Shown: positions 575 to 62,000, counted from the first letter of the whole stretch. The stretch is 63,653 nucleotides of DNA, filler included, from Reclinomonas americana ATCC 50394 (GCA_048213135.1; 15 parts of 15 records of this genome joined end to end with filler, not necessarily neighbours in it), one strand, 5' to 3'. Notes: generated by a model from the sequence alone, not told the origin. Program-made: numbers and translations.

Positions 575-1140
575 ACGCCGCCCCTCAGGCCGTGTGGGAC
601 CGCTGCGGCGACTTCTACAGCGTCAGCTTCCTGCCGCACCTGATCAGCTGCGACAAGCTGCACACTGGCGAGCGCAAGATTGTGCTCGGCAACCCGGCTT
701 CGGTTCGTCCCTCCCTTTTCCTCTCTCCCTCTCTTTCCCCTCAGAATTCTCACCGCGCACACCATTGCAGCCGTCGATCATCTACGAGCGCCAGGACCGA
801 CCTCTGGCTCGCACTGCCGAGCTGCCGTGGAAGTTTGCGTACGGCTGGACGATCACCAATGTTGCGTGCGCTGGCACTTTTGTGTGTCACCCTCCTTCCT
901 TTTGCTCACACAACCCCGCAGGACCCTGACCCACGCGTCAAGCCCGGCACATTCAAGGGCAACGTGCTGCTGTTCGAGCACGCCGGTGGCAAGACCATGG
1001 TGGTGGTCGATGTGACCTGGGTGGCACCAACGGCGGAGGACGGCGAGGCGGTGAAGACGGCAAACAAGAAGTTCTACGAGGATGCCATTGTGAACGTGCA
1101 GCGTCTGTTCCGCGCTGGCGGCTCAGGCCCCGCTCGCTAA
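575..1140 (+). CDS. SRPBCC/START (polyketide cyclase/Bet v1-like) protein, 5'-partial, 3 exons seen
   Basis: GT-AG splicing (exons ~575-701, 771-860, 922-1140) gives DAAPQAVWDRCGDFYSVSFLPHLISC...FAYGWTITN-DPDPRVKPGTFKGNVLLFEHAGGKTMVVVDVTW...FYEDAIVNVQRLF*. This fits the 'AxxxVWxxxxDF' start, beta-strands and C-terminal helix of SRPBCC folds. The upstream intron runs off the window. Confidence 0.65.
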
Positions 1141-1467
1141 ACGCGTCGCTTCTCCTGTTTTCCCCCCTCCTTACTTCTTGCGCGTCCGCTGGCGACATTT
1201 TTCTGCTTCTGTTGTGTTTTTTTCTCTTTATATGTGTGTCAACAACTTATGTATGTGGTGGCGCGAAACGGTCTGTGCGTGTAGGTGTGTGTGTTTTGTT
1301 GCCACGGCCGTCGCGCTTGCGTGGTCCTTTTTTGTGTGTGTGTGTTGTCAGGAGTCTGGTGACAGCGGGGCGCAAGCTCGTGTGCAAGTCTCGCCCCCGC
1401 GCGCAGCATTTCGTCCGGTTGTATGTGTGCGTATGTGTGTGTGCTGAACCCAAAATTATGTATCGCT

Positions 1468-4400
1468 TCATTCGTCTTCATCGTCGTCGTCCTCCTCGTC
1501 ATTATCCATGGCGCAAAACATGGCATCCAACTCGTCCAACATCTGCGCGCCACACATGAGCATCACAACTTGTAGGGGGACTTCCAACAAGAGATTACCT
1601 CTTCTTCGGCCCCATTCGCCGCGGTGCCACCGTCGCCGTCCACGGCAGTGCCCTTGGCCTGCTTCATGTCGTCCAATTCCATGAGTTCTGCCAGCAATGC
1701 CTCCTCGTCGGCCGAGTTGTCCTCATCGTCTTCATCGTCGCCACCTTCCTTTACCTCGTCCTTGCCACCATCTTCATCCGCTTTCTTCTCTTCCTCATCC
1801 TCATCTTCGTCCTCCTCCTCATCATCCTCCTCCTCCTCCTCATCGTCGTCGTCGTCATCGCTAGAGTCCTCATCGTCCTTGTCGTCTGCGGCACTCGGTA
1901 CAGCGTCTGCGGCGACTGCTGGAGCCGCTTCCACTGGCACCGGTGCTGGTGCTGGCGCAGCTGGCCGTGGTTCAGCGCCGACTTTGTATTTGGATTCCGG
2001 CTGCCGGCTCCACCGTCGCAGGCTATCAATCAACCACTGCAGCGACACGGTGCGCACATGCAGTCGTCGTCGAGCATCGCGAGCCTTGTCGGTGCCCAAC
2101 TGCATGTGGAGAAGAAAGATGTGGCGTCAGCGCGAAGCGGAAGACAGAAAGAAACATGAGCCGACAGCGCAACATTCGCCGCAATGAGGTGCGTGGTGTT
2201 GTCGGTGATCTTCAGCTCGCATCGTGCGCCAAACTCGGTGGCCATGCGCCAAATATCCGATCTGCACACGCGAAAAAAACAAGTGAGTTGCGCGATGGTG
2301 GCGACGTCGGTGACAAGACGCGAACCTCGTGGGATCTTGATTGGTCGGCAGAATTCCACTAAACACAATCACCAGGTCCTGCAACACGGCTCTCCGTGCC
2401 TTGGACAGCAGGCGCTGTGCACCAACGCGTCAACAAACAAAAGGAGAATACATAGTGACCGAGAAAGAGAGACGCACTGCGGCCGAGACGGAGGCCAGAT
2501 CCGCACCGGCGTCCAGCTGTTGATAGAGGCGATTGTGCACGCCCTCAATCACCCGATGCACCGTCGCCAGCTGCTCGTCCTTCTCGTCGACGAACGGCGT
2601 GAATGGCGAAAGCCAGCAGTTGCCCATGGGGTTGTTGAGTTCGCTGACAGAGTTCCAGAAGCGGTCTGTTGCCGAAGTGAGCACACAAAGGGCAGTGCAG
2701 ACGCAGAGCACATGAAAAAAACGCAACAGGGGGGAATGCCAATCACGTTCGGCGCATACTTCCATACGTCCGGCCGATCGTCAACGACAACGACCAACGC
2801 ATCGGAGATGGGGAAGAGGCGACGGATTTCTTTCGAGCGCTTGTCTGTCACAGAGAAAGAAAAGGAAGTCAGGTAAAAGAAGAAGGGATGAGCAAATGGG
2901 GAAGAGGTGGCGGATTTCTTTCAAGCGCTTGTCTGTCAAAGAGAGAGGAATCGTTGGCAAAAGAAGAAGGGATGCAAATGGGGAAGAGGCGGTGGATTTC
3001 TATCGACAACTAGTCTGTCACAGAGAAAGGAAAGGAAGCCAGGCAAAAGAAGCACATGGGAAGAGGCGGTGGACTTCTTTCAAGCGCTTGTCTGTCACAG
3101 AGAAAGAAAAGGAAGTCAGGCAAAAGAAGCAAAAGGGGGACGGTGGATTACTTTTGAGCGCTTATCTGTCAAACGAGAAAGACGAGGAAGTGTTGGCAAA
3201 AGATGAAGGGATGAGTGTCTTGTGCAAATGGGGAAGAGGCTTTCGACCAATAGTCTGTCAAAGAAGTGTTGCAAAAGAACAAGGGATGAGTGTCTTGCGC
3301 AACTCGGACACTCTGTCGCCGAGAGTACTCGATCGTGGAACACGACATGGTGGGGATCCAAAACCTGTCAACAGAGTCAGCTCGATAGCCACCAACAATC
3401 AAATTGGCAGAGTGCGCTCACCTGGGTGACTTTGTCGGCGTACTCGCGAGTGCCAAACGTGTACGCGTGCATCTCGCACAGACGGCCACACTTGGCGAAA
3501 AAGTCTGCCACGCCAGGCCTGCATGGTGGTGTATGAGATGAGGGAGGAAGCAGAAGACTAATCACCAAATACACACTCACCGCAGTTTCACCAGGTACGT
3601 GCGACCCAGCAGCTCAAACTCGTGCACATCGGAAGAGAAGTCACTACACCACCCATTCAAAGGTATGAGCACCATCGCATAACACTGCGTATCGCGTCTG
3701 CATGTCTCACCGTTTCACTGCATCCAGATCCACTGGAGTGGCGAACTCGCGAGAGGTGGTGGTGTGGATGAGAGTGGCGTCCAGATCAAGAATGAGGCAC
3801 AGCTGTCGACACGAGAATGTGAGGTCGTTGACGAACATCAACGACACAGAGCGTTGAGCGAGAATGCACCTTGCGAGCTGACATGATGCGCCGCTGTTCA
3901 GCCATTGACAGGTCTCGTGCAGCCTGTGACCCGCAAATGAGAACACTGAAAGGCAAAGTGCAAACACGGTGCACTCACATCGACAGCCACCATCAGGTTG
4001 GCGGTGCTGTGGCCCACGCGATGCATTTTGCCCGATTCCTCCAGCGCGATGGTCAGCCTAAGGAATGGGAGGGTGAGGGAGAGGGCCAGATAAGAAGGGG
4101 GGAGGAGGGAAGGGAGGGAGGAAAGGAGGGGGGATGGACAATCAAAGAAACACGCAAGTGAGAAGGAAGACGGGAAGACAGAGAGGCAGAGAGAGAAAGA
4201 AAGAGCGAGATAAGGGGAACACGACAGCGAGGAAGAAACAGGCCGACAGAGGAAAAGGTAGAGATGGACATAGAAGAGAGAGAGAGAGAGAGCATCCGAC
4301 AATGAGAAGGACTGACAAAGAATGTCGTAATATCTGTGAGTGAGCAAGTGCGGGAACGGGAGATAGGCAGCCTTTGTGCAACCTTCAGTGACCAATCGAA

Positions 4401-6631
4401 ATGCACAGAATACGAGAAACAGAAGAACAGTGCATATTCTCGGAGATACAAATCACGAGAATCAGCCAGGTATCACGCAAGCGACATACACAGTAAGAGT
4501 ATAGAAGAAATGCATGAAAGACAAAGGTGTTACGAGAGAGATAGAGAGAATGTGAAAGTGACAGCAACAAGCAGCGAGGACTAGGGAGCAGGAGAGAGAC
4601 GGAACGCAACAGTGCGCAGAACAGAGGTAGGCAGGGAGAGAGAGAGAAAGTGACAAAAATTACTGCAAGAGTGAGGAAGTAATCAGAGAGAAAGAATATC
4701 AAGAAAGAGAGATAAATCAACAGTGGACATGAGAGAGAGAGAGAGAGAAAGAGACATCATCGACAGAAACACAGCCGACCTTTTCCCCATCAACGCAACT
4801 TGCTGACATCCCGACCACACGCAATACACATGCCGCCAAACACCGTGACATGCGGACACACGTCCACCTCGTACAACGCCGTGTCGCCATCACGTGCAAT
4901 CTGCATCGGTTCCTTTGCCTGCGGCAGCAACGACTTGACAGAGCCGCTCACCAACGCTGCATAGTCAGAGAGAAGGAACCCAGTCAGAATCTTGCCCAAT
5001 GCGAGCGACACCTTCACGCCAGCGTCCACGCAACAGCGCAGTGGAATCACGGCCAGGTCGGCACCATGCTGTACGGCGGTCTGCGTGTGGCGGGGGTGGT
5101 AGCCGACCAAATCGCCCAGGTATGTGTCCATTTGAATGAGATCGTCGACGGTCACGCGCCACGGTCCCAGCTTCCACAGCATGTCCATGGGATGAATGTC
5201 GCAGTCGGATGGCAACACGCCACTGCGGCCACGATGACGTCAGCACAAGGAAGACTACCTCTTTCTCGAGCCACAAGACGCAACTCAATGGACTGCGGGT
5301 GACGAGCCTCGCGCATCTTTTGCTCGGCCGACTTTTTCCTCTCCTCCTCTCGCTGCTCCTCGGCACGCTCCAACATTAGCTCCTTGCGCCGCTGGTTCTT
5401 GCTAATAATGTCTTCCGCGTGCTCCTCGACAATCTGCCGCAGTGTACGTATGTGCGAGTTTGCCTCGTTTCGCCGCTGAGTAGCAGCAGCCGCAGAGTTC
5501 GTCTTGGACGACGTCATGAGTCGTCTTCTGGCAGGCGGTCGTGCGCTGGCCACGGGCGCGCTCTTCTCGCGAGAGCGGTCGACCACAGCTCGCAGTGACG
5601 CATCCAGTTGCGACGCGGTGCTCAACATGGAGACGCCAGCGCCGTGTACACCGAGAGGCAGGCGTGCAGCGGAGGCTGGAAGCGTGCGCTCATCAAGCAG
5701 CAAACACTGCAGCTGCGTGCGCGGTTTGGCGGCACCACCGTCGCCAGTGAGAACCGCTTGCAGACGCTGCGAGTGCCAGTCCAACATGGCCTCCGAGGAG
5801 AACGACAAGCATTGCAGGTGAGAGTTCTCCTCGAGTGCGTCAATGATGGCCGACGTGCCGGACGAGCCATGCGAACCTACGCGACATGGTGAAAATGAGT
5901 GTTATCGTGGAGGACAAGCGCACAATCTGCGAGACACCCACCGGCGAGAATGAGCACTCGCAAAGGCGGATCCTTGCGCAGAGCCTCGGCCAGCGCAAAT
6001 ACGCCCTCGTCGACAAGCCGCGGATTGCCGGCCAGATTGAGATTAAGCACTTTCGATCGCGGGAGAGCGGTGGCCAGCACTTGCGCCACCGCATGCGTCA
6101 GGTTGCACTCTGTGTGCGGGTGCACTGCATGAGATAACAGGCAGTTGCGCGAGCACTCCAGTCACCCCTCACCCGCAAGTGACAGGCTCGAGGCCGCCGA
6201 CAATAACCGCTCGGCCAGCGCGGCCGACAGAGGGGACCCCTGAAAGAGTGCCGGATTGCGCGACAGGTCCAACATCGCGCCACCTGTGGCACTGCTGCAC
6301 GACGACCACGCCTGCAGCACGCCTTGCACATCGCTCAGCCGCGGATTGCCTGCCACCGACAGCCGCACAATGCGCGTGCACTTGGCCTCTGGCAGAACTC
6401 TGCTGCCCAGCTCCTCGACATCGCTGTCGACGAGATCGGCATCTGCAAGAATCACTGAGTCTCGACGCCGTGCTTATCACAGAGACCGGATCCATTCACG
6501 AACCAGACAAGTCAATGTCGCGCACACTGGGGAACACGTGCAAGGCGCAGGCGAGAAGCTCGGCTACGCTGGAATCGGGTCGTCGCTGGCGTGCCACGGT
6601 GAGGAAACCAGGAGGTAGGTGTTGGAGGTGC
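1468..6631 (-). CDS. FCP1: RNA polymerase II CTD phosphatase FCP1/CTDP1 with N-terminal LRR and coiled-coil extension (5'-partial, ~17 exons)
   Basis: The spliced product contains CPHVTVFGGMCIACGRD, HAD motif LCLILDLDATLIHT, VKLRPGVADFF, YTFGTREYA, LDPHHVVFHDRVLS and RRLFP..VVVVDDRPDVW..NVIGIPPYRFW. It then has a BRCT domain (IVFSGILP..FGARC..TTHLIAAN-LGTDKA..VSLQWL) and an acidic tail ending MLDELDAMFCAMDNDEEDDDDEDE* (stop 1468-1470). Upstream exons 5285-6631 encode RI-like LRRs in frame. Confidence 0.92.
2808..3303. repeat. Degenerate ~60-90 bp tandem repeat (about 6 units) spanning an FCP1 intron and the start of the next exon
   Basis: Recurring ATGGGGAAGAGGC..GGATTTCTTTC.AGCGCTTGTCTGTCA.AGAGA..GGAAG...GGCAAAAGAAG. 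The GTCTGTCA core occurs near 2843, 2931, 3013, 3090, 3165 and 3253. Confidence 0.85.
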
Positions 6632-6719
6632 CTGGGGGGAGGGAAAGGGGGTGAGGGGGAGGAGGGAGAAGGGGAGGGTGAGGGTGAGTGTGAGGGTGAG
6701 TGTGAGTGTGAGGGTGAGT

Positions 6720-6762
<43 letters not shown>

Positions 6763-6912
6763 AGAGGGGAGAGGGGAGAGGGGGGAAGGGTGAGGGTGAG
6801 GGAGAGGGTGAGGGGTGAGGGTGAGGGGAGAAGGGAGAGGGGAGAGGGGAGAGGGAGAGGGAGAGGGAGAGGGAGAGGGAGAGGGAGAGGAGAGGAGAGG
6901 AGAGGAGAGGAG

Positions 6913-7012
6913 NNNNNNNNNNNNNNNNNNNNNNNNNNNNNNNNNNNNNNNNNNNNTTAATTAATTAANNNNNNNNNNNNNNNNNNNNNNNNNNNNNNNN
7001 NNNNNNNNNNNN
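6913..7012. other. Artificial contig spacer (N44-TTAATTAATTAA-N44), first of 14
   Basis: Identical six-frame-stop spacers start at 6913, 9295, 11700, 13518, 15400, 19293, 26609, 34837, 38082, 47473, 51062, 53704, 56119 and 62228, nearly always next to microsatellite or low-complexity sequence. Confidence 0.98.
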
Positions 7013-7123
7013 GTACGACGTCGTACGACGACGGACGACGGCGACGACGTACGTCGTACGTACGTACGGACGGACGGACGGACGGACGTACGTACGTACG
7101 ACGAGAGAGAGAGAGAGATGTGA

Positions 7124-7161
<38 letters not shown>

Positions 7162-7189
7162 AGAGCGCGATGGGTGAGAGAAGGAAACC

Positions 7190-12667: not shown

Positions 12668-15600
12668 CTCTCGTTCTCCAGTCACCTCTTGCTTTCTCTC
12701 CCCAGGATGCCCGTCCTCTGCTCTATGATCGTCACCGTTCTTAGTCTTTCACTCTCTGCACTTCGCGTATCCTCGATTCTCATCCAGTTCTCTTCACGTG
12801 TAACTCACCTCACGTTGCCTCATCTCTCCCCTTCATCCCTCATCCCTCCCTTCCCTCTTCCCCCCTTCCCCCTTCCCCCCTTCTGCCCTCCCTCACCCCT
12901 CCCCTCTCATCTCGACAGCGCCGCCGCCGCCTCCGAAATGTCCCCCACACCTCAACAACGCGCCCAATGGCGCCTATGGACCGTGCTCGTGCACAACCTG
13001 CACCGCGCCGTCGACGACATTTACGCCTCGTGCGAACTCGACGCCAACATTGACGGCTGCCGCGAAGTGATGCACACGCTCGATCAGTGCCACACCGACT
13101 TTTCGAATGTTGAGCGCCAGCATCCCCTCTTGTGATTGTAGCATGAGGTCTAATCGTTGGCGATGCTTGCACAGCTCATCAAGCAAATCGAGATCCAGGC
13201 CCAGTTCAACCCGCAGGCCGACAAGGGCGTGGCGTGGGACATTCGCAAGGCGTCACCGCCCGTGGTGGCGCCTCCCGCTGCGCTGCCCGTGTCGGCTGCT
13301 GGTGGATCGGGTGCGTTGATACTGGTGCGGTGATTGTTGCGAAGAGAAGCTCACTCTCAGCGTGCGCAGTGAATCTGCTGGTGCCCGGATCGCCCAACAT
13401 TCCCTCGTCGCCGACCAAGGTGCGTTTGTCGATCGGGTTCTCTTTTGGTGTTGCGTGCACGCCTCTCCTTCTGCCTCTCCCTCTTTCTCTCTCTCACTCC
13501 CTCTCTCTCTCTCTCTCNNNNNNNNNNNNNNNNNNNNNNNNNNNNNNNNNNNNNNNNNNNNTTAATTAATTAANNNNNNNNNNNNNNNNNNNNNNNNNNN
13601 NNNNNNNNNNNNNNNNNCACTCTCCTCTCTCTCCCCACTCTCTCTCTCTCTCTCTCTCCTCTCTCCCTCTCCTTCTCCTCTCCTCTCCTCCTCCTCTCTC
13701 TCTCCTCTTCTCTCTCTCCTCTCTCCCCTCTCTCCCCCTCTCCCTTTCTCCTCTCCTCTCTCCTTTTACCCTCTCTCCCCTCTCTCCTCCTCTCTCCCCC
13801 TCTCCCTTTCTCCTTCCCCTCTTTTCCCTCCCTTCTTCTCACCCTTCCCCTCCCTCCCTCCTCTTTCTCCCGCAGCCCCTTTCCCGCGCTTCCGGCAGCT
13901 ACGCGCAAGCCACCGTGTCCTCCTCTCGCAAGACCACCATCAAGAAGCTGGAGGTCGACAAGACAGGTGCGTTTCCTTCCCCTCTTCTGTCCATTTGCGT
14001 GCCTGTCCTCATCGTACCTCAGACTCGGCCACTGCTGCGGCCCCACCGCGCCCACCGCGCAAGGCGTGGGGAGCCACGTCATCGAATGCAGGCTCAGATG
14101 CCGACTCGGCATCGGCGACCGAAAGCGGCGCAGAAGCCGGCGCAGAGTCCGCGGCAACGGCGACAACGGCGACGGGTGCGAACGGCAACGCAGAGACCGC
14201 TGCCGCTGCTGCCGCCTCGTCAGGCGCTGCGTCGGGCACCGCTGCACCAGCTCCCGAGGCGACTGGCGAGAAACGTGCGTCGTCTCCACTTGTTCTTCTC
14301 CTTCGTTCATTTGCTCATCCATGCATTGCACAGCGGCGACCAAGAAGCGCGACTATGGAGAGGCAGCGCGGCGCAAGTCGGTGGGATCGCAGGCTGCCAA
14401 GGACCCCTCTGCGGCAGTCAAGGCTGGATTGGCCGCGCGGTCCGAGGAAGGTGGGAAGCAGAGGAGAAGTGACTCTGGTGTGATGTGTTGTTGACTCTGT
14501 CGTTGTGCAGACATGGAGGTCCAGTCGCTCAACTCCACCGATGGCCCACTGCCGAGTCTGGATGATGTGTTTGGCGGTCCGTCGGGCGATGGCCACTCGT
14601 GGAGTGAAATGTTGCGCATCGTGCGGAGGGGAAGAGAGTCATAACAATGCAGCCTGTCCTCGCTTTCATACTTCTCTTCTTCTCTGTACTCACCGCCCTC
14701 CCCCCTCCTTCTCCTTCTCCTCCCCCTCCTCAGGATGGCCATCACGGAGCCTAGCCCACCGCGCCACCGTCAACGCAAGCTCCACGAGCGCCTGTCGTCC
14801 CCTGAGCGGTCGCGGAAGCAGCCCGAGAACATTGAGCAAGTGCTGGCTGAGAAGCAGGTTTGCTCTGTTCCCCCGTTCTCTTCTTTCCACCATTCCTCAA
14901 CTTTGATGCCACGCCACAGAAAAAGGCCGAAGCCAATCGCAGCCGCCTGGTCAGCGAAAAGCAAGCCCGCCTGCAAGTGCAGTCGTCGAGGGTTCGTCAA
15001 CCCCACTCAGTCGCTGTTTATCTTCTCTGTCTCACATGTGCTTGCATGTCAGGTGCGTGACGTGCAGGAAAAGAACTCGACAACCGTCAAGAAGCTGCAA
15101 CAGGAGGTGGAGGAGAAACTGAGCCGGGCGGAGGAGGTATGTGATGATGATACTCTCCGTTCCTCCCTCTCTATTCATCCTTTTCGTTCCTCCCTTTCCG
15201 TTCTCCCTCTCCGTTCCTCCTTCCTCCTCCCCGTTCCTCCTTCCTCCTCTCCATTCCCCTCTCCATTCCCCCTCTCTGTCTTCCTTCCTTCTCTCCGCTC
15301 CCCCCTCTCCGCTCCCCCCTCTCCATTCCCCCCTCTCCATTCCCCCCTCTCCATTCCCCCCTCTCCATTCCCCCTCTCCATTCCCCCCTCTCCATTCCCN
15401 NNNNNNNNNNNNNNNNNNNNNNNNNNNNNNNNNNNNNNNNNNNTTAATTAATTAANNNNNNNNNNNNNNNNNNNNNNNNNNNNNNNNNNNNNNNNNNNNG
15501 TTCCCTCCTCTCCGTTCCCTCCTCTCCGTTCCCTCCTCCATTCCCTCCTCTCCCTACTTGCGCTTCGCTCACCTCCCATTCCCCCTCTCCGTACCCCCTC

Positions 15601-18600
15601 TCCGTACCCCCTCTCCATTCCCCCCTCTCCATTCCCACCTCTCCATTCCCCCCTCTCCCTCCGTTCCTCTCTCTCTCTCCTCTCCTTTCCTCCTTCCTCT
15701 TCTCCCGCTTGCCTCACCTCTTGTCCCCATCCCGCCCAGATTCACGAAGCCCACCTGCAAGCCATCCAAGACAAGGCCAGCTTGGAGAACTTGAAAGTCA
15801 ACGAGATTCAGTTCATCCAGACCCTCAGGTTTGAAACCACTCCCAATCGTTCGCGTGGTTGTCTTTCCATCCCGCTCATCTCTCTCTCTCAGCGAGGCCA
15901 ACCGGCGAGCGGAGCTTCTGCAGAGTCTCGAAGAAAAGGACGCGAGGATACAGGAAATGTTGCGTGATCGTTTGGAATCTTGTGGTTGTCAGGCTCTTGT
16001 CGTCTCATTTCCGTCGCAGTCGCGAGAGCAAGCGCCCGCGCTCTTCATTTGGCGGCACAGAAGGTATTCGTGCATTCACTTGATGTATCCTCGCCAGAAG
16101 CTGACCCTCCACTTTTTGTGCAGCGCCCGCGTCCAGCGAAACCCCGCCACCCAGTGGCGGAGATGGCGCAGGATCTTCGTCAAACAGCACCACCACCACT
16201 GCCACCTCCACCACAGCTGCCGCGAACGCCAACGCAGGCACAGCCGCTTCTGCGGCTGCTGGTGCTGGTTCGGCCGCTGGTAGCGCACCGGCAACTGCCG
16301 CTGCTGGAGCCTCGGCTGGCGGCAGCTCAGCGAATGCAGGTGCCAATGGCGATTCCTCGTCCGAATTCGGTGGCGCCGACGGTGGCGACAATGAGGGTCT
16401 GTGCAAGGAGATGCGTCGGAATAGTTTGTGTCACGCACTTACCAGTGATGTGGCAGGTCCATCGGAGAAGAAGAGATCGAAGGGCGCTGCGCGCCGCGTC
16501 AAGAAACTGCGCATGGTTGGCTATTACTCTCTTGCTCTCTTCTCTCCTCACTTTGGCTGACTCTGCCTGCACGCAGCGCATCCAAACCTATGCTCGGGAG
16601 TTCATGGAGTTTTTGTCCACAGACCTGGCGGCCTCCACTGTCCCGGCGATCGATACGTCGGTCAATGGTACGTCTCATTCTGCCACTCCTCAATTCATTG
16701 TGGACTCACATGTTCTGCTTACAGAGAGCGCCAGCGAGGAACCGTCAGAGGTTCATCTGCTTCATTGTCTTCTTTTTTTCGTCACGTCGTCTCACTTTTT
16801 CTTCGACAGGCATCATCGTCATCTGCTGCCGCTCCACCGACTTCTCTGTCGCCCACCTCTTCGGCATCGGCCACCAAAGCAGCCAAGGGCGGTCCACACA
16901 ACCCGCGCATCACTCGCATTCTTGGTGCGTCACGAGTGCGTAACACTATCTGATTTTTCTGCTCACTCGTGCTTCTTTCGCAGGCGAGCTGCAGAGCCAG
17001 CTGACTGCCAAGTGCGTCAATGACACGCGGCCATTGTTGCAGGATCTCCTCAAGTTCCTGGATCACAAGGTGAGCGCGAGAGAGGAGCAGGGAAGGGAGG
17101 GAAGAATTGAAGATAATGGGGTGAGACGTGCGGGGGCGACAGGAGAAGAGAGAAAGAGAATGGACTGACACTTGCATGAGCGCGAAGTCAGGAGTGGAGA
17201 CGATTGGGGAGGGGAATAGTAGAAACAGAGGACAGGTGTATAAAGGGACAAGAAAGACGTGCATGGACGGGAAAAGAAGAGAGGCGAGGGGAAGCAGAAG
17301 AGAAGTGTGAAGTGCACTGATATCTGGGAAAGCGAAAAGAGGAGAATTGTAGCCAGGGAAGGAGATGAAGGGAGGCAAGAACCTATAGTGACAAGAATAG
17401 ATTGGTAGAGAAAACTGAGCATACGAAGAATGTTGATTATCGTCTGATCACTTCCATGCAGCGCGACATTGACCTGCACTCGATTCGCACGAGTGGCGGT
17501 ATCGATCTGCTCTTCCAGATGATTGCTGTCGTCACGCCGACCACATCCTCCTTGTTGCGTTCGCCCTCCACATACCTCCCTTGACCTCTTCGTGCTCACT
17601 CGCTTCATCCCCGCAGGGTGCTGCGCTTGCTCGGCCAGGTGCTGTCTGTGGTGCTCAGCTTGAAGACCAACGCCGTCTACGTGCTCCACTCCGGCAAGGT
17701 GGTGAAGTTGATTGCGTGGCTCATCAATGTGCTTGACAAGGACGAGTTGTACGTGGCCGCGTTTGTGTCGACCCTCATCCATATTCTGTCGGAGGGATTC
17801 GATCGGCAGGCGTGGACGCCGTCCATTCACCAGCTCAAGGATGATGTGTTGGGGTGAGGAAGGGGAAGGGAAAGGGAGAAGGGAGGAGAAGGGGAAGAAA
17901 GAGAGAGTGGGAGGGATTTGTTAACGAAGGGAGCATGATGGGAGAGGGTGCGAGAGCGGCTACAAATGAGGGAAAAGAGAATGGAGGAGAAGTGAAAGGG
18001 GGGAGAGGAGGAGACGCACAGACTGAGATGAACTGAGTAAGGAACGTGCGCAGAGAGAATTTCTGTTCATTTCCCTCACTTCCATCTCGCAGACTGTTCC
18101 TCGTCTCTGGCGGCGACGCACAAGTCAAGGATCGCCTGTGCCTGCCCAAGGGAGCCTTCGATCCCACCGCTGTCTCCACGGCCATTGTGCATCGCTGCTT
18201 GCTGCTGTTGGAAGTCATGACGTCGTACACGGAGAGGAGGTGTGCTTCATCGCCGTGAAGAGCTCTGAGCTCGACGTTGACTCACCGTTCGTGACGCAGA
18301 CTCGTCTCCAAGCCTCTGTTCCAGCCGCCGACACCAGTGACCGCCAGTGACAGCACGCAGCAGGCGTTGTGTGAGCTGGCGTTGACGAGTTGCGCAAGTG
18401 GCACGAAGTCCCGCTCGTGTGTGATAATGCTCATTTTCTTTGGTTCAGGTGTCATTGATCTGCTCGGTGGTCTGCTGGTTCAGGCCTCTGCTGGCCCATC
18501 TCGCGGATCACTCGCCGCTTCTGCGCTCTCACCCACCGCGTGCAACATGGTGTGCGTGGCAGTGCGCATTCTCAACAATGTGGCGCGCTTGAATCTGCCC

Positions 18601-20807: not shown

Positions 20808-22764
20808 TTATCGTACATATTCATCTTCGTCGCCACTGTCGACGTGCATTGGCATCATAATGCAGTCGTCGTCGGACCAGTGCAAGAAGCTGGTGATTAT
20901 GGCGCACTCGCTCATGCCCAGACGCAGCGACTCGTCGTTGGAGCCCTGCAGGCAGATGCGCAAAATTCGAGCCTGCGCGTAACCCCACAGTGGCACGCGG
21001 CAGAGCGGGGTAAGGAGCTCGTTGACGTAGGTGCGGAATGACTCGCCGCCTTCCCACTTGGGTGGTGCCTGATTGGACACGGAGAAGAATGAGTTCTCTG
21101 AAAGGGGTGAGGCTTGAGCGCATCTTGGCACGCAACGACACCCGACGGCATCTGGCACGGAACGCCACGCAATCTCTCGTCCTCACGGATAATGGCGCGC
21201 ACATCACGGACGAGTTCCAGGGGCAAGCAGTCAATCAGCCCGAGGAATACGCGACTGCGGGGCACCTTCTGCACAGGCACGAGGGGTAAGAGAGGGCGTT
21301 GACTTTGCTCAAAGATGGGGGGGGTGAACGGACCTGCGGCTCCTGCAGCAACCGCTGCCAGTACACGTACAGATTGGAGAAGCGCTCCAGGCATGTAGCG
21401 ATCCGCGTATTGAGTGTCGGGTGGAAACCAGGGAAGCAGTAGCTGGCCAGTGTGGTTGGCAGCCCGGTCCGGTAGGATCGGAAGCGAAGACCAAGAGCTG
21501 TGTGGAAGGACAAGAGATGAGCATTCACATAGAGAACGGCACGCTCTTTGTTTGAGAAGGAGACAAACCAGTCATCTCGCTCTTGGATCGAAGCAATTCG
21601 CGGCCATAGACTGTAGAGAGAGCGCGGGTAAGTGGCGTGTCTCTCACAAGTGGGGGTCAGCAAGCTTCACAACTTCGTTCATAATCGTCCACCGTGCCCA
21701 GCGAATTTCCTGCGCACCAACATGAGCACACAAGCGAGAGAGCACACAGAACTTTGCTCCGCGTCGCAACTCTTTCGCATTTGCGCCTCGGGTGAGAACG
21801 CTGCACGACGACTGCCCGCTGATGAGGGAGTCTGTGGAGCGCCGCCGGCAGCGGGCGAGGTCGGAGTGGCGATGGGCGATGGCGCCATGCGGTGCTTCAT
21901 GGCCGACTTGGTGGGCGTGGTGGCCGAGGCTGGCGACAGCGCGGCGTGCGAGGCCGCCGTGGCCGCTGGACTGAGAGGCAGAGACGGCGTGGCCACAGCC
22001 AACGCCACGCTGCCGCGACGAGCACCAATCGCCGACTGCTTCACCTCGCGCTCGGCCACGGCCGCAAACAGCTGCTTGCGGAACTCCGGGTTGCGCTCAA
22101 AGTACACCTCCAGGCGCTCCCAGCACTCGTCCTCGTCGGCGTCGCGGAAATTAGCAAAGTCCTCTGTGTCACAAGACGGTGAGAGAGATGCGAGTGGGAG
22201 GAAGAGCATAGTTTTGTGACGCACCCGCCACACCCGACACCATCATGTCGAACGCCTGTTTGCGCTGCGCTGCGGTGCTGTCCTCGTCCTCCAGCAGGCC
22301 CATGATGTAGTCAAAGGTGACGGTGGAGACGGCCAGGGAACCGCGGCGAGCGAGTGCGAGGGAGGCCGTGCTGAGCGCCGTCAGCGGGATGAGCGGTGTG
22401 CACTTGGTGGCTGTGTGTGTGGGTGAGAAGGAGAGGGGAGAAGTAGAAGTTATATGCTCGTCGGAATCACCTTTCAGCACGTCCTCCACGCCGGTGCGCA
22501 GCTTTGGCTTCATCTTGAGCAGGGTGTCGAGGCGCTCCCAGAACTGCGCCTCCGTCATGTCGTTGAAGTCCACGAATCGTCCTGGGAAGGGGGAAGGGGA
22601 AAAGGGAAAGGGGAAAGGAAAGGTGAGTAGAGGCAAAGGAGAGGGCGGGGGAAAGGGAGGGTGAGTAGAGAGAGAAGGGGAGGAGAGAAAGAGTGAGGGC
22701 AAATTGCATGGGGTGAGAAAAAACATGACAAGAACAAGTGAGAACAAGTAAGCGAGAGGCAGAT

Positions 22765-22796
<32 letters not shown>

Positions 22797-38657: not shown

Positions 38658-39141
38658 CCCCAAGACATCATCGCCGCAGAGGACTCGGTGCGTCGCGCCA
38701 ACCGCAACGTCGGCATCATGGTGTCGATCACCGACAAGAAGCGCGCGGAGACGCGGAGACGGCTGGAGAGTTGCGATGTCGGATCCCTTTGTTTTTGCTG
38801 AGCGCCTGTCTCATGCGTGTGATGCAGGGGCGGAGGACACCGAGGACCACATTCAGTTCCTCAAGTCGCAGCTCCTGCGACTGCAGGACCAGCGGTGGCG
38901 ACTGACGCGGCAGATTAGTGCGGATCAGGAGTTTGTGGAGGAGTGGGAGGCGATGGAGCCCATACGGCAGGCCATGGAGGCGCACAGGGCGCTGGAGGTG
39001 AGAAGAGCGTGGGGAGGGGTGAAGGGAGGAAGGGGTGGGCAGGTTGTTGACTTCTGGTTGTGCTGCGTGCAGGAGGAGCAAACTGCGCAGATTGTGCGGC
39101 TGCTGGGGGCGTTGGAGGATGCTGGTGTTGTGGTAGTATAA
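38658..39141 (+). CDS. Hypothetical coiled-coil protein, 3' exons only
   Basis: Three exons joined by GT-AG introns give PQDIIAAEDSVRRANRNVGIMVSITDKKRAETRRRLE-RAEDTEDHIQFLKSQLLRLQDQRWRLTRQ...RALE-EEQTAQIVRLLGALEDAGVVVV*. Confidence 0.55.
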
Positions 39142-46106: not shown

Positions 46107-46790
46107 TGACAGACAGAAAGACAGACAGAGAAAGAGCAAGAGAGACAGACAGGCAGACAGGCAGAAAGACAGACAGACAGATAGACAGGCAGACAGACAG
46201 ACACACAGACACACAGACAGAGAAATTGAGAGTGAGATAGAATTGAAGATAAAAAGGCAGATGCAAAGCAGGGAGAAAGAAGGACAAAAGTTAACGAATG
46301 AGTGAGAGAGCGAGTGAAATCATGCACAAGATGTCCGACCTTTGGTGTCACCACTCACCAATCGCTGAGACTCCACCACCCGCTGCAAAGCGGGATCATA
46401 TGCTAATCTTTGCTGCGACAGCAGGCTCACCGAGCGAGATGAGGCTGCGAGGAATAGTGGCAAGTGAACACAGAGACAGCTGGGTGTAGAGTGGGATAAT
46501 GAGTGATAGCAATGAGAAAGACCAGAGAGAGGTAAAGCGAACGAAGAGCGAAAGAGAAAAGAGGACGAGAGAACATGCGCAATATAGAACGTAGAATGCA
46601 CGTGTGTGCTTGTGGGTAGCTTTGAGCAAGGTCTCTTCTCCTTCCCCCTCAAGCACGCAACTGACATCATAGCGCCCACTCTCAACATCAACCACCGCGT
46701 CGTGCTCCTGCAGGAAGCGCATCACAACTTGACGTGCCTGCAGCACGCGGTCGACGGGGAGCAGCTGGCGCACAACCGCGAAGCCGTGAT
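44963..46790 (-). CDS. Phytanoyl-CoA dioxygenase (PhyH)-family 2OG-Fe(II) oxygenase, 5'-partial
   Basis: HGFAVVRQLL; WLRGVRRGEFT-GIHMDKIY (HxD motif); LTTWIPLG; GALAFVPGSH; GDVAVFGPHLVHAT (distal His); RLSIEVRW. Confidence 0.85.
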
Positions 46791-55031: not shown

Positions 55032-55210
55032 TAATGCAGTGGAATGAGATAAGGAAGGTTGTGGGAGAAGAAGTTGTGTTAAGGTGGAATTAGAGGGTGG
55101 GCTTCTTCACTCTCCTGTTTCTTCTGTTAGCCTTCTCACTGTTGCGTGTGCGAGTGTTTTTAGTCAGCGGCCACGTGGTTTTATCGGGTTGTATCCCTTC
55201 AGTTGCGGCA

Positions 55211-55370: not shown

Positions 55371-56006
55371 CGATTTGGTCTGCTGAGCTGACCACTGCCG
55401 CCCACTCAGCAACGTTACGGATCGAGGTGAACGTCAGCTACACGTAATACGGAACCAGTTGCAGGGCTGCTTGGTGCTTCCTCCTTGTGTACTGCCCAAC
55501 TCTGTACGCTCTGCAGCCTGATACCTAGACCCGGAGGAAGGCATCGACGTCAAGAGTATGCGTCTTCTGGAGGTCACTGCTGACAAATTCTTCTCCCTGG
55601 CCTGGTGACCGTGTGTCCTGAATAGGGCTTTTGCTCAGCATCTCTAACACACTTGTAGCAGGAGAGAACAAGACTTGATGGCGATGCTTGTGGAGGATAA
55701 CAAGTGAAGTTTCTTATCATGAGGTCAAAACGGCCGCTGGAAATACAGTATTGGTGAGGCGCAAGGTGCCCCGAGTTGCCATAATGGCAAGGTTGAACAA
55801 CAGAACACGTTCAGCGCACACTTCACGTGCCACTCGAGGCACAACTTCCGGTCCCAGTGCATGTGCAGGACACGCTTTGTGACGCAACACACCAGCGAGG
55901 CACTCTTCAGTTGTCTTCTCTCTGCCTTTGCCTTGCTCCTCCTCCTCTTCACCTTGTGCATCACTGAGCAAACAAGTGCGTGCGTGTAAAGGACATTGCG
56001 CAAGAC

Positions 56007-59000
56007 ATGGACGGGTGCGTCACACTCACTCACTTGTTGTCTCTCTCTCTCTCTCTCTTTCTCCTCTCTTACACTATGGTGACTCAGACGACCACCTCCG
56101 CCTCCTCCTCCGCATATGNNNNNNNNNNNNNNNNNNNNNNNNNNNNNNNNNNNNNNNNNNNNTTAATTAATTAANNNNNNNNNNNNNNNNNNNNNNNNNN
56201 NNNNNNNNNNNNNNNNNNGCTCTCTCATTGCCTTTCTTTTCTGCCCTCTCGCACTGACTCCTCTCCTCCCTTCCTCCTTCCCATTGCTTGCCTCTTGCTC
56301 TCCTGTTCACTTCGTCTCTCTCTCGCATACTTTCCCTTGCGCTCACCCATTCCGCACATCCACATCACTCCATCGATGTGGTTTTCTCTTTCCTCCTCTC
56401 CCTCCACCGCTCACTCCTTGTTCTCCCTTCTCTCTTTCCCCCTCATATGCTCTCTCTCCCTTGCCCTCCCCTCTCCTTCTCATAGGTCACGCCTTGTCTC
56501 TCCCTCGGTCGCCCTTCCATCCATTTTTCTTCGCTCTTTCCTTCTGTGCTCTCTCACTCACTTCTCCTCTCCATCTTTCCCTTCTTCCCTCCCTCCACCG
56601 CACACTGTTTGTTCTCTTTTTTTCTCCCTTCTTCCCATCTCTTACTCTCTCCCCCTTCTTCTTCTCCTCTCCCCCCACAGCCACCCATGGTCGCCGCACC
56701 ATACGGCATGCAACCCATGATGGGCGGCCCTGGCGGCATGCTTCCCGCTCCACCAATGCATAGACCACCCCCGCCCCCGCCTCCTGCTGCTGCTGCTGCT
56801 GCTGCTAATGCTGGTCCCACTGGTGCGCCTCCCGGTCACATGTATGGTGCGTATGTCGTGAACTGTGAGCGGTGACTGCGCGCTGTTGTTCATTGTGTTG
56901 CGCAGGGTGCGTGCGAGGAAGAGGAGAAGAGAGAATAGTCCTCTGTGAGAGAGAGAGAGAGAGAGAGACAGAGACTCTGTGTGCATGTCTGTCAGAGTTT
57001 GTGCCCGTGTTGCCCCCACTTCTCATTTGCGTCCATTTCCGTGTTGCAGAGCAATGCCCATGATGCCGCAAGGTTTGACTCTCTGTTCGTGTTTGTCCTC
57101 TCGCTTGAGCTGACTGTTGTGTGGATGGCAGGCTTCCCGCCAGCAATGGGCATGGTGCGACTGTGCGTATCAATTGTCACTGTTTGTGCATTCTCCTGGC
57201 TAACGTGTTGCACAGGCGGCTGGTCGTGGCGACGGTTTGCTGCCTGCACCGACTCATCCGGCAGGATCGGTGTGTGAGGGGGGAGGAGAATGGGAGGAGG
57301 AGAAAGAGGGATGATAAGGATGCAAGGAACAGTCTGAAAGCAGGAAGGGAATGGGAAAGGCAACGAGAATTGGAGGAGGCATGTGGATGCGATTGAAGGA
57401 GTTGAGATAGGAGCAGTGGGAGAACAGGAAGTGAGAAGACAGAGGAACAGTGTGCAGGGCAAGAGCAGGGGAACGGCAGGAATTTGCTTCCCCTCTGTCC
57501 TCCCGACTTTCGCCCTCTTGTTCCCTTCGCATCTCTTTCACCTTCTCTTCTCTCTTCCCCTCTCCCTTCCCCTCTCTCTTCTCCTCTCCCTTCCCCTCTC
57601 CCTTCCCCTTCCTTTCTTCTCTTTCTCTCCTCATGCGGACAATACGCGCTTTCTGTTACTCTCTTCTATTCCCTTCGTCGCCGTTCTTTCGATTCGCTCT
57701 CTTTCCGTTCCCCCTCCTCTTCCTTTCTTTACCTTTCTTGGCCTGCTCTCCCCTCTCTTTTCCCCGTTGCTCCCCCCTCTCTTTTCCCCGTCTCACCCCT
57801 CACCCCTCCCTCCCCCTTCCTTTCTCCCTCTTCCTTCCCCTTTTTTTCCTTTGCTTCCTTCCCTCGCCCATCTCCTTCCCCCTTTCCCCCCCTCCTCCCC
57901 CGTCTCACCCCTTCCCCCTCCCTCCCCCCTCTCCCTTCCCTCCCCCCTCGCAGTCCCGACCACCACCCCCTCCCACACCCCCTCCACCCTCCATGCCCCA
58001 CGGCGCTGGCGGCCCCATGATGATGATGCCCGTCGATCCCATCCAGCAGCAGATTCGCATGGCCCACGAAGCCTACCAACAGCGCGCCGCCGCTCACCAC
58101 GCGGAATCGTTGCGTTCTGCGGCTTGCCGTGCGAGCGATATTGCCATTTTCCTCATTGCTGGTTCCTACAGCGCCGACCCAGCAACCGCGTGGACCAAGC
58201 ACAGCGCCGGCGAGAATGTGTTTTACTTCTTCAACACAGTGACGAGGGAGTCACGATGGGACAGACCGGAGGGTTATCGGGAGGTTTGTGCAAGTGGGTG
58301 AGGGAGAGGGAGAGAGAGAGGGAGAGGAAGAGAGAAACCCGGCCAATCTATTATGTTTTCGCCCGCCTTGTGCTCTTCGTTTCTCTTTTACTTTCCTGTC
58401 GCATCCTTTCCCCACCATTTCCCATGTCCCCTCATTCCCACGGCATGTGTGGGGATTGCAAGAAGAATAGGACGGCCAGCAAAAAGGGACCCTTGGCATT
58501 GTCCATGTGCCTCGTCTCAATTGCGTGATATCTTGTGGCCCGTTGCGAGTCACATGCAAATCTGTCTTGTCTGTCCCTCTCCCTTAATTTTCCCTTGTTT
58601 ACCGCTTTCTCGCTATGTATCTGGGGATTCTACGAGGAAGAAGTCGGGCAGCAGAGACAGAAGCTTGGAATTGTTCAGCCTGAGAAGTGCAGCTGTGTAT
58701 GTCTTCTGGCTAGTTGGGGGATGTACAAATCTGTCACGCATTTTCTCCATTCTGGTGTTTTCTGCCAGTTCCTGTTACTGCCGTGCCATTCCCCTCACCG
58801 TTTCCCATGTTGCTCCTTTCTCGCGCGGTGTTTGGAGATCGTAGTAGAAAGTCCAGCAGCAGAGAGATACGCTGCCAATCTGCTACTCTTGGCGACTTCT
58901 TTCCTTCCTTGTGTACTATTCTCCCTTCCCCTCTCCCATTCTTTCCTTGTTCACCTCTTCTCCTGCACTTGTGCGGGATTGGAATGGGAAGTGGTCGCGC

Positions 59001-62000
59001 AGCAGAAACAGAGAGACCTTGCCAGTCAATCATTCACATCCTCCTTCCTTGTTTTCTTGCCTTTCCTCTCCCTTTCCTCTCCCTCTCCTCTCCCTTCCCC
59101 TCTCCCTCCCCTCCCTCTTCTCTTCTCCCTTCCCCTTACTCTTCCTTCCCTCTCCTCTCCCTCCATTCACCTCCCTCCCTCCCTATTCAGCCTGGAACCG
59201 CCGCCGCCCCCGCCACCACCGCCGCCCCCTCCCCCTCCAAATCCAAAAAGAAAAAGCCAAAGCCCATCGCCTCGTTTCGTCCCTCCTCCTACCCTCTCTC
59301 TCTCGCCTCTTTGCTCCTCACCCACCCTTTACCCCTCTTGGCAGCGACAAGATCGACGGCACCGACTGGCTCCTCATCACCCTCGACGACGGCCGCAAGT
59401 ACTACTACAACAAGATCACCAAGCTGCCGTCGTGGGAGGTGCCCGACGAGGTGGCCATGGTGCAGGCCTCGATGCTCATGGACGAGGAGCCGCCTGGTGA
59501 GGGGTTGTAGAGAAGGGCGATTGTGGTGATTCGCATGCTCATTACCACGCAGCGAGCGACGCAGCTGTCGTGTCCCACAAGCGAGCGGCAGAGGCCGGTG
59601 ACGACGGTGACGGTGCCCCGCCGCAAAAGAAACGGAAGACCAGGTGTGTGTCGAGGGTTTGAGATCTGAGTCTCACTTTTCTTCTCCTGGTTTCCTCTGC
59701 GTCTCTTCCGCGTTTCTCTCTTTTTGTCCTCGTGAGTTCCTCCGCAATTCTCTTCTTCTCCGTATCACTCTCACGTTTCTTCTCTTCTCCCTCATCTTCT
59801 TTTCTGCTTCGCAGTGGCGACGGCTCGGATAGTGAGGGACGCGAGGAAGGCGAGGATGATGAAGAGGAGGGCGCCGTGCACGAACCGGGTGAGCGCGCCG
59901 ACTCGCTCACGCTGGAGGAGCGCAAGGAGATCTTTAGGGTATGTCCGGATCGACCTCTCTCGAATCTCCTTTCCTCTCTCACCCCCTTCTCCTCCAATCG
60001 CAGGGTCTGCTGCGCGACAAGAAAGTGCTGCCTTTCTCGGAATACAACAAGGAGCTGCCGAAATTCATCTACGATCCGCGCTACAAGAGTTGCGGCAGCA
60101 TAGAGTGCATGCCCCTCCTTCAGCCCTTCTGCACACTCACGCGCACGCAGTCCTGCCCAAGCAATCCGACCGCACGGCCGTCTTCGAGGCCTTTGTCAAG
60201 ACGCGCGCGCTCGATCTGGAAAAAGAGGACGCCGAGCGTCGCAAGGCCGCCTCCAGCGAGTTCGAGGAGCTGCTGCGTGGCGCGCAACTGACCGGCAGCT
60301 CGCAGTACGGCGAGTTTTGTGACGTGCATCGCAATGATCCGCGTTTCCAGTCGGTGTCGTCGAGGAAGCGCGAGCAGTTGTTTGCCGAGTTTGTCGATGC
60401 CCTGGCCAAGGAGGAGGAGAAGAGTGCGGAGAAGGGGAAGGGAAGAAGAGGGGAAGGGGTATGGGGGAGGGGAGGGAGGGAGGGAGAGAGAGAGAGAGAG
60501 AGCAGAGAAAAGAGAAAAGAGATGTCGCATTGAGAGGCTTCATGTTTCGACTCGATTGGGTAGCAATCGACGACTCGTGTCGACTGTGGGATGGTTGCGC
60601 TCTTTGTTGTGTAGAAGTGTTGAACTGATTGGTTGCATGTCGCTTCTCGATTGAGAAGCGAACGTGTCAACGTTAGGACCCTTCGTATTCTTCGTTGTGT
60701 AGAGGTGTAGAGATGAGCAGCTGCACGATGCCTCCCGAGTGAGAGGCAACATAGGAGTTTTATCACTATTGTGCCTTTTGTTGTGAAGCAGTGTTGGGCT
60801 GCATCTCGCTTCGTGAGTGCGAAAGCGCGATTTGTATCAACGCTGCTGCTTTTTGTACTTCGCTCTCGGCTCTGTTGTTTTTTCGTGTCCGTCTGGCTGT
60901 TTCTCAACTCTCACAATGCGTGCCTTAAAGTCCTCGCAGATATCTTTCCAGTTCTGTCTCTCCCATTCTCTTGTCTACGATTTGTTGTTCTCGCTGCATT
61001 CTGGTCAGCTAGTTGTTCTGTCTCTCCATACTTTCGTCATTGTTTCTTCCTCTTGCGATCAGTGCCAGTTCTGTCCACTAAGGTCTGTGCATGGATTAAT
61101 TGTGTTAGTGCACGCGTCTAAGTCTCCCCATGTCGATTTTGCCTTTCCGTTTCATTCAAGTGCTACGCGTGGTTGTCACTCCCTGTTCACTCTGTTGCTG
61201 TATTTGCATCTGTCTTTTCGTCTTCACCATTAACACCCTCTTCCCCCCTTCCTCCCCTTCCCCTTTCCCCCTTCTCTCCCTTCTCCCTATTCACAGAGAG
61301 AAAGAAGGAGCTCGAAAAAGGCAAGGCCCCCTTCCTCGACCTCCTGCGCGAAAAGGGCAAGGTGCAGTACGACTCGCGCTGGTCCCACGTCAAGGAACGC
61401 ATCCGCGACGACCGTCGCTACGAGCTGCTCTCCAAGACCACACGGGAGATGGTATTCGACGAGTTCATCAAGCACCTCCGCATGAGGAGAGAGGAGGAGA
61501 AGAAGTCGCTGCAGAGGTGAGTCTCCGAAGAGTGGCAAGCTGCTCTTGGTGGTGGCTAAATATCTTCTTGTGCTTTACAGACTAAAGGATCGCGAAGACT
61601 CGATCCGCAGTCAGAAAGAGCAGGACATGGTGGAGAAGGAGCGGGCGCTGGAGGATCAGCGGAAGAAGAGTGCCGAGTCGGATTTCATTGCCCTGCTTAA
61701 GGAGAAGGTGCAGGTGGACACGGTGCGTAAGGGGCGAAGGGGGGAAAAGGGGGAAGGGATCCTTCTCTCTTCTCTGCATTCATTCGCTTCCCCTTTATTC
61801 CCCTTCTCCCAGAAACCATGGGAGGAATGGCGCCCGGTGCTCCAGCGCGACTCCCGCTTCCGGAACGAGCACTTGGGCACCGATCGCGACAAGGAGGCGC
61901 TGTTTGACCTGCATGTCACCGAGCTACGCGAGTTGTGGGAGACAATCTTTGCCAAGTTGGTGGGCACGGTGGATTTGCACTTGGACAGCAAGTGGTCCGA

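Follow-up and report, generated by a model that had tools for sequence, protein, structure and literature searches.

In the draft assembly of Reclinomonas americana ATCC 50394 (GCA_048213135.1), we analysed a 63.7-kb stretch of intron-dense eukaryotic DNA of 54% G+C, called the window throughout, and focus here on introns whose 5' splice site (donor) begins GTTGCG. Judged from the sequence, these donors form a real class, both distinct and abundant, in which the donor signal is displaced relative to the cleaved GT. Their best explanation, to which we give a slightly better than even chance, is that U1 small nuclear RNA (snRNA) binds them one base downstream of its usual register, with U5 and U6 choosing the GU.

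Introns were located with an exon-chaining gene finder that combined models of three-periodic coding sequence and intron composition with an acceptor matrix and a length prior; it imposed GT-AG ends and gave every GT an identical donor score. After self-training, 105 introns (median 68 nt) were kept, those with flanking exons scoring above the opposite strand, and among them GTTGCG was the most frequent donor hexamer (18), ahead of GTGCGT (11). Only 0.92 GTTGCG donors were expected, given 62 copies among 7,099 GT sites (binomial p = 3.4e-18). Moreover, the hexamer shared first place (7 of 99) when the gene finder was first run, at which stage no introns, acceptors or donors had been learned, so its dominance is not a product of the training loop. 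Splicing is required at 17 of the 18, which shift the frame or contain an in-frame stop, and the frame-compatible alternative donors within +/-36 nt share no common motif. An initial annotation of the same DNA had put the class at one in five introns; our share of 18/105 (17%) comes close and probably understates the class, since the 30 donors without +5G that start otherwise than GTTG probably include several gene-finder errors.

The hexamer is also in excess across the window. Counting both strands, 62 copies are present against 31.4 +/- 6.0 expected, and no dinucleotide shuffle out of 100 contained as many as 62. Twenty-seven copies lie at predicted donors or at donors claimed in the initial annotation, and the remaining 35 are close to the chance number (13 unassigned, 9 antisense-exon, 3 antisense-intron, 5 sense-exon and 5 sense-intron); the two-fold excess is explained by intron starts. 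Use as a donor depends on the exact hexamer. Within gene spans, sense-strand copies served as donors in 18 of 36 cases for GTTGCG and 11 of 33 for GTGCGT, compared with 1/17 for GTTGCT, 1/15 for GTTGCA, 0/12 for GTTGCC, 1/7 for GTTGAG and 2/21 for GTTGTG, and the class thus requires each of +4G, +5C and +6G. Outside confident gene models, copies at 29022 (minus strand; acceptor score 6.3 at 95 nt), 30483 (plus; 3.7 at 61 nt) and 29976 (minus; -0.2 at 69 nt) may be further donors in unmodelled genes or untranslated regions.

The initial annotation had listed 25 donors by hand, and its description of them holds: all 25 coordinates carry the motif (22 GTTGCG, GTTGAG at 13109+, GTTTCG at 59274+ and GTTGTG at 21673-), and every -1 base is A, T or C. 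The gene finder recovered 17 of the 25 exactly among its kept introns; two more (15959+ and 3303-) appeared among non-kept predictions, and 33439+ appeared only once donors were trained. It newly predicted GTTGCG donors at 21136-, 33306+ (weak, 43 nt) and 46661-, plus 13450+ in the donor-trained run. The sites are as follows, with junctions written exon/intron; "kept" denotes retention by the donor-blind gene finder, and "frame check" a frame-compatibility check within +/-36 nt.

861..921, plus strand: GTTGCG intron, 61 nt, aat/GT; kept; shifts the frame; acceptor at 61 nt scoring beyond the 95th percentile of the null
2100..2173, minus strand: claimed GTTGCG intron, 74 nt, aat/GT; gene finder preferred an in-frame GT 18 nt downstream
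2666..2727, minus strand: GTTGCG intron, 62 nt, cct/GT, in the FCP1 phosphatase domain; kept, frame check, Fcp1 alignment
3255..3303, minus strand: claimed GTTGCG donor, cga/GT, acceptor uncertain, repeat-rich intron; donor-blind prediction, non-kept
4058..4799, minus strand: GTTGCG intron, ~742 nt, caa/GT, acceptor less certain; kept, frame check
4957..5034, minus strand: claimed GTTGCG intron, 78 nt, in-frame and stop-free; gene finder reads through; acceptor score 4.6 at 78 nt
5223..5284, minus strand: GTTGCG intron, 62 nt, tga/GT; kept, frame check, with one poor alternative donor (GTCCAT)
13109..13174, plus strand: GTTGAG intron, 66 nt, aat/GT, in the SCAPER_N domain; Pfam profile and homologue alignments
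14611..14733, plus strand: GTTGCG intron, 123 nt, aat/GT, in SCAPER; kept, frame check; homologue alignments gap-free 4/9
15959..16019, plus strand: GTTGCG intron, 61 nt, aat/GT, in the SCAPER coiled coil; donor-blind prediction, non-kept; homologue alignments gap-free 8/10
17554..17616, plus strand: GTTGCG intron, 63 nt, ctt/GT, in SCAPER; kept, frame check, acceptor score
18389..18448, plus strand: claimed GTTGCG intron, 60 nt, in-frame, doubtful; gene finder reads through
21069..21136, minus strand: GTTGCG intron, 68 nt, gtc/GT, absent from the initial annotation; kept, frame check
21611..21673, minus strand: GTTGTG intron, 63 nt, gaa/GT, with an alternative in-frame GTGAAG 3 nt downstream; kept, frame check
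21710..21770, minus strand: claimed GTTGCG intron, 61 nt; gene finder placed the donor at an in-frame GTTCTG 18 nt further downstream; acceptor at 61 nt scores 3.6
22582..23509, minus strand: GTTGCG intron, ~928 nt, aga/GT; kept, frame check
25449..25510, minus strand: GTTGCG intron, 62 nt, gat/GT, in the ankyrin region; kept, frame check; ankyrin alignments gap-free 11/21
25854..25917, minus strand: GTTGCG intron, 64 nt, gca/GT, in an ankyrin variable loop; kept, frame check; alignments gap-free 29/102
26101..26160, minus strand: GTTGCG intron, 60 nt, cga/GT, at ankyrin LLE-YGA; ankyrin alignments
26258..27485, minus strand: GTTGCG intron, cga/GT, crossing an assembly gap, length uncertain; kept; ankyrin alignments
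33306..33348, plus strand: predicted GTTGCG intron, 43 nt, cgt/GT, absent from the initial annotation, weak; kept; no clear branch motif
33439..33504, plus strand: GTTGCG intron, 66 nt, aac/GT; donor-trained run; acceptor score 4.9 at 66 nt
33867..33929, plus strand: GTTGCG intron, 63 nt, aga/GT; kept, frame check
38770..38827, plus strand: GTTGCG intron, 58 nt, aga/GT; kept, frame check
46445..46661, minus strand: GTTGCG intron, 217 nt, tca/GT, in the PhyH-like gene, absent from the initial annotation; kept, frame check
58109..58171, plus strand: claimed GTTGCG intron, 63 nt, in-frame, before TCERG1 WW1; gene finder reads through; acceptor score 4.5 at 63 nt
59274..59344, plus strand: GTTTCG intron, 71 nt, ctc/GT, the shifted form of GTTCGT; kept; no frame-compatible alternative within +/-36 nt
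60089..60150, plus strand: GTTGCG intron, 62 nt, aga/GT, in TCERG1 FF1; no other frame-keeping GT/AG pair; human TCERG1

The intron after 3303- (~2850-3300, minus strand) contains several tandem units of ~100 nt ending TTGACAGAC, and since each resembles a branch site plus acceptor, the acceptor of this donor is uncertain.

Homology supports the exact placement of five junctions, at 13109, 15959, 26160, 27485 and 2727. At 13109+, the SCAPER_N profile runs from its position 8 to 58 at the last residue of the upstream exon and resumes from 59 to 91 at the first residue of the next, and all 42 SCAPER homologue alignments cross the junction gap-free; ordinary SCAPER junctions, for comparison, are gap-free in 11/15, 13/14, 14/14 and 14/14. 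When 120 ankyrin proteins were aligned across the ankyrin junctions, 265 of 292 alignments were gap-free at 26160- (VKMLL-E-YGANPD) and 132 of 283 at 27485-. At 2727-, the sequence of the Schizosaccharomyces pombe Fcp1 structure (3ef0) aligns through the last residue of the upstream exon. The Pfam BRCT matches before 2173- end at the codon preceding GTTGCG, with S. pombe Fcp1 aligning from residue 3 of the next exon. Human TCERG1 matches over 670-694 upstream of the 60089+ junction and again from 700 downstream; the loop between differs by one residue, and homology places this junction only to within one loop residue. Look-ups in the PDB gave no match for the exon after 2727, the BRCT exon before 2173 or either exon flanking 46661. 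Among ordinary donors, junctions at GTTCGT, GTTTGA and GTTTCT were confirmed by homologues; in MLH1 (113 homologues), at least 98% of alignments were gap-free at the consensus-like junctions (GTGCGT twice, GTGGGT, GTTTCT and GTTCGT), and 79 of 109 at the GTGTCT donor at 54206. The initial annotation had held that cutting before the GT restores the frame and conserved residues; the 17 introns that need splicing and the five junctions named above bear this out, and one site, 18389+, leans the opposite way (see below).

For base composition, we took as ordinary the donors with +5G (n=51) and compared them with the 18 donor-blind GTTGCG donors, and also with a union set of 26 GTTGCG sites. Ordinary donors carry -1G in 36 of 51 cases, with G (30) or T (12) at +3, C (22), T (17), A (10) or G (2) at +4, and T (31) at +6; they accept U at +3, favour a pyrimidine at +4 and nearly lack G there. 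At GTTGCG donors the -1 base is A in 10, T in 6 and C and G in one each (Fisher test for -1G, p = 2.3e-6), and in the union set A in 13, T in 10, C in 3 and G in none. The earlier claim that -1G never precedes the motif thus holds for the union set. Against a background of 16-20% G before GT(T), 0/26 gives p = 0.003-0.009, a modest active avoidance. The lone prediction with -1G, at 60594+, is probably spurious and was rejected: it sits in a doubtful chain of mini-exons in TCERG1 that one frame-compatible intron replaces (60424-61296, plus strand; 873 nt, GTGCGG...CAG), yielding a continuous FF-domain protein. More broadly, the frequency of -1G falls as the intron side strengthens, from 0.92 at GTHNGT and 0.61 at GTGNGT to 0.06 at GTTGCG.

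On the intron side, the T that ordinary donors carry at +6 (31/51) is found at +7 in 10 of the 18 GTTGCG donors; in the union set +7 T occurs in 15/26, compared with 9/35 non-donor copies of the hexamer. In length, branch motif and acceptor, these introns are like ordinary ones: median length is 63 versus 69 nt, the acceptor is CAG in 17 of 18 (TAG in the other), and a CTNAY branch motif lies within the last 45 nt of 13/18 (median distance 17 nt) versus 34/51 (19.5 nt). The downstream exon begins with G in 9/18 compared with 10/51, albeit in small numbers, and the spliced junction often reads A/G, as though the intron lay one base upstream of the ordinary AG/ position. Two other assignments were rejected. 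A TT...GG boundary moved by one base would leave the mRNA unchanged only in the 9/18 cases in which G is the first base of exon 2, and it would lack the catalytic G. U12-type introns are characterized by an RTATCCTT donor and a rigid TCCTTAAC-like branch site; here the donors are GTTGCG, and the branch motifs are CTNAY as in ordinary introns.

We propose that GTTGCG introns are U2-type GT-AG introns, short and with a CTNAY branch motif and a CAG acceptor, in which the block that would pair with U1 and U6 (GCG-T, rarely GAG or TCG-T) is displaced one nucleotide by an extra U, giving GU-U-GCG-U. Such a site would be defined from the intron side, without the exonic -1G on which ordinary donors depend. 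U1 would lie one base downstream of its usual register, with +1G opposite C9 and UGCGU opposite A7 to A3, and U5 and U6 would then select the GU for cleavage. This would require U6 to accommodate an additional nucleotide separating the GU from the G-U paired with its ACAGAGA box, such that, after U1 departure, U6 pairs one base further from the cleaved GU; we infer all of these snRNA-level steps. In human shifted-register sites the displaced block is reportedly AAG, as opposed to GCG here.

This shifted register had been suggested in the initial annotation, and the suggestion stands in part. The core is displaced by +1 (GTTGCG, GTTGAG and GTTTCG from TGCG, TGAG and TTCG, with T at +7) and -1G is lost, but there is no positive sign that -1 pairs as the ordinary -2 does. 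At +7 to +9, the shifted register has the highest log-likelihood (-72.8), 4.2 ahead of the same register (-77.0), with background at -77.6. Pair counts, made with a generic U1 5' end that may not be this organism's own, average 5.39 at GTTGCG sites in the +1 register and 3.92 in the canonical one; the shifted register pairs better at 13 of the 18 sites, compared with 2 of the 51 ordinary donors. A bolder statement, that about one-fifth of introns are spliced one base out of register by both U1 and U6, or that a dedicated second U1/U6 variant serves GUUGCG, is on balance rather unlikely on the present sequence.

Several points weigh against the downstream binding of U1. At -3 to -1, the log-likelihood is highest for background (-74.3), followed by the shifted (-79.8) and the same register (-86.5), and the -1:U10 pairing that the shifted register predicts leaves no clear mark. 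A register with a bulged U gives as many generic U1 pairs (5.44 versus 5.39) and is the better of the two at 8/18 sites. With a standard U1, two pseudouridines would lie opposite the shifted +4 and +5, where G makes a wobble and C a mismatch, and GUUAAG would be expected to serve best. Because G and C are poor partners of pseudouridines, standard U1 alone leaves the strictness of TGCG unexplained, and a contribution from U6, a protein factor or a changed U1 would seem to be called for. Part of the loss of -1G matches the split into exon-side and intron-side classes described in the available portions of PMC11732430 and PMC11842720. Furthermore, the sample is one 63.7-kb window, and five of the 25 claimed sites (2173-, 5034-, 18389+, 21770- and 58109+) were not recovered and have in-frame alternatives: the candidate introns at 18389+, 58109+ and 5034- are in-frame and stop-free, and at 2173- and 21770- a GT that keeps the frame lies 18 nt downstream. 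At 18389+, the match in 4 of 6 homologue alignments begins at, or one residue before, a Gly that would be lost on splicing, mild evidence that the site may not be spliced. The gene finder also errs: three MLH1 junctions at non-consensus donors are wrong, with 1-2 of 69 alignments gap-free. A single intron of ~711 nt at 47975-48685 (plus strand), starting gcg/GTCTGT, probably replaces three spurious mini-exons in this gene.

The bulged-U alternative holds that U1, and then U6, pair normally with +1 and +2, and that the extra U at +3 (or +2) bulges so that GCGU pairs as usual. Besides its equal pair count, it predicts the displacement of T to +7 equally well, and among non-canonical registers in human those with a bulge are the more frequent (available portions of PMC4856993). 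It keeps -1 opposite C9 of U1, however, and so predicts that weak sites carry -1G no less often than ordinary donors; -1G is seen in 1/18 (0/26 in the union set) versus 36/51, and at -3 to -1 the same-register model fits least well of the three. The loss of -1G therefore argues against a simple bulged-U register that retains exon pairing, and we consider this alternative unlikely. A co-evolved or additional snRNA would address the strictness of the motif: a U1 5' end (or a second U1/U6) with G and C replacing the pseudouridines would pair with both GUGCGU and the shifted UGCGU by Watson-Crick pairing, or a dedicated variant would pair with GUUGCG. The strict +4G/+5C, together with the ordinary +3G (30/51) and +4C/T (39/51), is what such a U1 would select, and the available text of bioRxiv 10.1101/2022.06.08.495308 offers precedents in Entamoeba (U1 ACAAAC with GUUUGU donors) and Mastigamoeba (ACGUAC with GUGCGC). 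The same text states that Thecamonas trahens and Micromonas pusilla keep a standard U1 despite +4C or GYGCGY donors, so a GC-rich donor does not imply a changed U1, and no Rfam family matched within the window at gathering thresholds, so no snRNA gene was located there. We regard a variant snRNA as quite unlikely.

Two further accounts were weighed. If GTTGCG sites were not donors, hand placement and gene finder would both have to misplace the boundaries; the gene finder's errors at some non-consensus donors and the five claimed sites with in-frame alternatives speak for this. Yet with all GT scored equally GTTGCG was chosen 18 times against 0.92 expected, the frame-keeping alternatives share no motif, residue-level homology fixes several junctions, and the other 35 copies are at chance level, which together leave an artefact very improbable. 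The hexamer might instead be the end of a mobile element (introner or transposon) that made these introns, as the identical opening of many short introns of similar length could suggest. An all-against-all blastn of the 105 introns gave 8 matches at E < 1e-3, of 15-67 nt, none joining two GTTGCG introns, and the sequence beyond +8 is unrelated; a mobile origin is thus exceedingly improbable. Overall, we infer that a U1/U6 pairing register shifted by one base fits best and that the bulged-U register fits worse.

Comparison with known systems, based on the available portions of the cited papers, places the class near several human examples. Shifted-register 5' splice sites (Roca & Krainer 2009, via PMC4856993 and PMC11162779) are rare in human, and all validated non-canonical registers together account for ~1.5% of 201,541 sites (PMC4856993). 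As at those sites, the intron opens with GUU, the block for U1 pairing is displaced by one base in the downstream direction and cleavage would fall at the GU; unlike them, one fixed hexamer opens ~17% of introns (18/105) here and -1G is absent. The donors also resemble bulge +2/+3 sites (Roca et al. 2012; Tan et al. 2016, PMC4856993) in reading as a consensus that has gained a nucleotide between +2 and +5, but the bulge model keeps exon pairing, and the exon-side -1G:C9 pairing is not kept here (-1G 1/18 vs 36/51). For U6, the one human site at which a non-canonical register has been demonstrated to date is the STAT3 tandem donor, by means of a suppressor U6 (Kramarek et al. 2024, PMC11162779). 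There, as would be the case here, G-U pairs with U6 C42/A41 one position off relative to cleavage; the STAT3 case concerns one site shifted upstream (+4/+5), in contrast to the many sites here, shifted downstream (+6/+7) and known from sequence alone.

Two classes of 5' splice site have been distinguished, the U5-loop-1 or "left-handed" AG//GU and the U6-ACAGA or "right-handed" //GURAG (accessible parts of PMC9803359, PMC11732430 and PMC11842720). As in these classes, exon-side and intron-side strength are anti-correlated here, and GTTGCG donors have the strong intron side and weak exon side of the right-handed type. They differ from the published intron-side class, which has its G at +5, in carrying G at +6 and G-U at +6/+7 rather than +5/+6. 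The ordinary donors of the window (GTGCGT; +4 C/T in 39/51) are like those described for Thecamonas, Mamiellales and Mastigamoeba, and the passages on +4C/GYGCGY lineages in the same preprint (bioRxiv 10.1101/2022.06.08.495308) do not mention a displaced second donor class. No description of a GTTGCG/GUUGCG donor was found in the literature searched, which excluded subscription papers and supplements, and genome papers on candidate lineages may hold donor logos. What is new is an intron-side class with G-U at +6/+7; non-canonical registers as such are already known in human.

Genes of the window were identified with Pfam on long open frames and predicted exons, and are listed here.

~1.5-5.3 kb, minus strand: FCP1-like phosphatase with BRCT
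Minus strand: hexosaminidase
12.2-20.7 kb, plus strand: SCAPER
20.5-29 kb, minus strand: Ras/Roc-ankyrin protein
40.3-44.8 kb, plus strand: WD40 frame of 1,499 codons
45-47.6 kb, minus strand: PhyH-like gene
47.8-55 kb, plus strand: MLH1
56.7-62 kb, plus strand: TCERG1, with WW and FF domains
62445-63653, plus strand: open frame with an rve integrase core domain (E = 1e-12), running off the right end

The integrase frame probably belongs to a retroelement or DNA transposon. Leucine-rich-repeat-like exons at 5285-6631 (minus strand) were chained by the gene finder to the FCP1-like gene and to upstream hexosaminidase exons; these are probably separate genes fused by the predictor. In a set of 5.8 billion proteins, the best matches to an MLH1 exon reached at most ~70% identity and bore mostly fungal names, the top two scores being duplicated chimeric records. 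An ankyrin exon matched generic ankyrin proteins alone, at no more than 52% identity, and a protein search with the SCAPER exon 17618-17851 gave no match. A metagenome scan with a 931-aa exon brought up generic WD40 loci alone, and these were left out of the analysis. The window's 1,232 N all fall in 14 identical spacers of 100 bases (44 N, TTAATTAATTAA, 44 N; for example 6913-7012), which are all-frame stop linkers at assembly gaps. Thirteen of them lie within or adjoin short-unit simple repeats, and one (51062-51161) breaks the MLH1 coding sequence; reading frames and intron lengths across spacers are unreliable.

The choice of cleavage site by the spliceosome is generally held to depend on a constant distance from the GU to the bases with which U1, and later U6, form pairs, and the human sites that break this spacing are rare and were each proven individually. 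If the bolder statement made above is true, in either of its forms, the GTTGCG introns would be a natural, genome-scale example of a register flexibility that in humans is confined to rare sites; with both U1 and U6 shifted, the catalytic core would as a matter of routine admit one more nucleotide between the cleaved GU and the helix formed with the U6 ACAGAGA box. A eukaryote that uses this one displaced hexamer at about a fifth of its introns would offer a natural system for the tolerance of U1 and U6 to register slips, for the replacement of the exon-end G and for snRNA co-evolution. In such genomes, gene predictors with a single donor profile would blur or miss the GTTGCG class.

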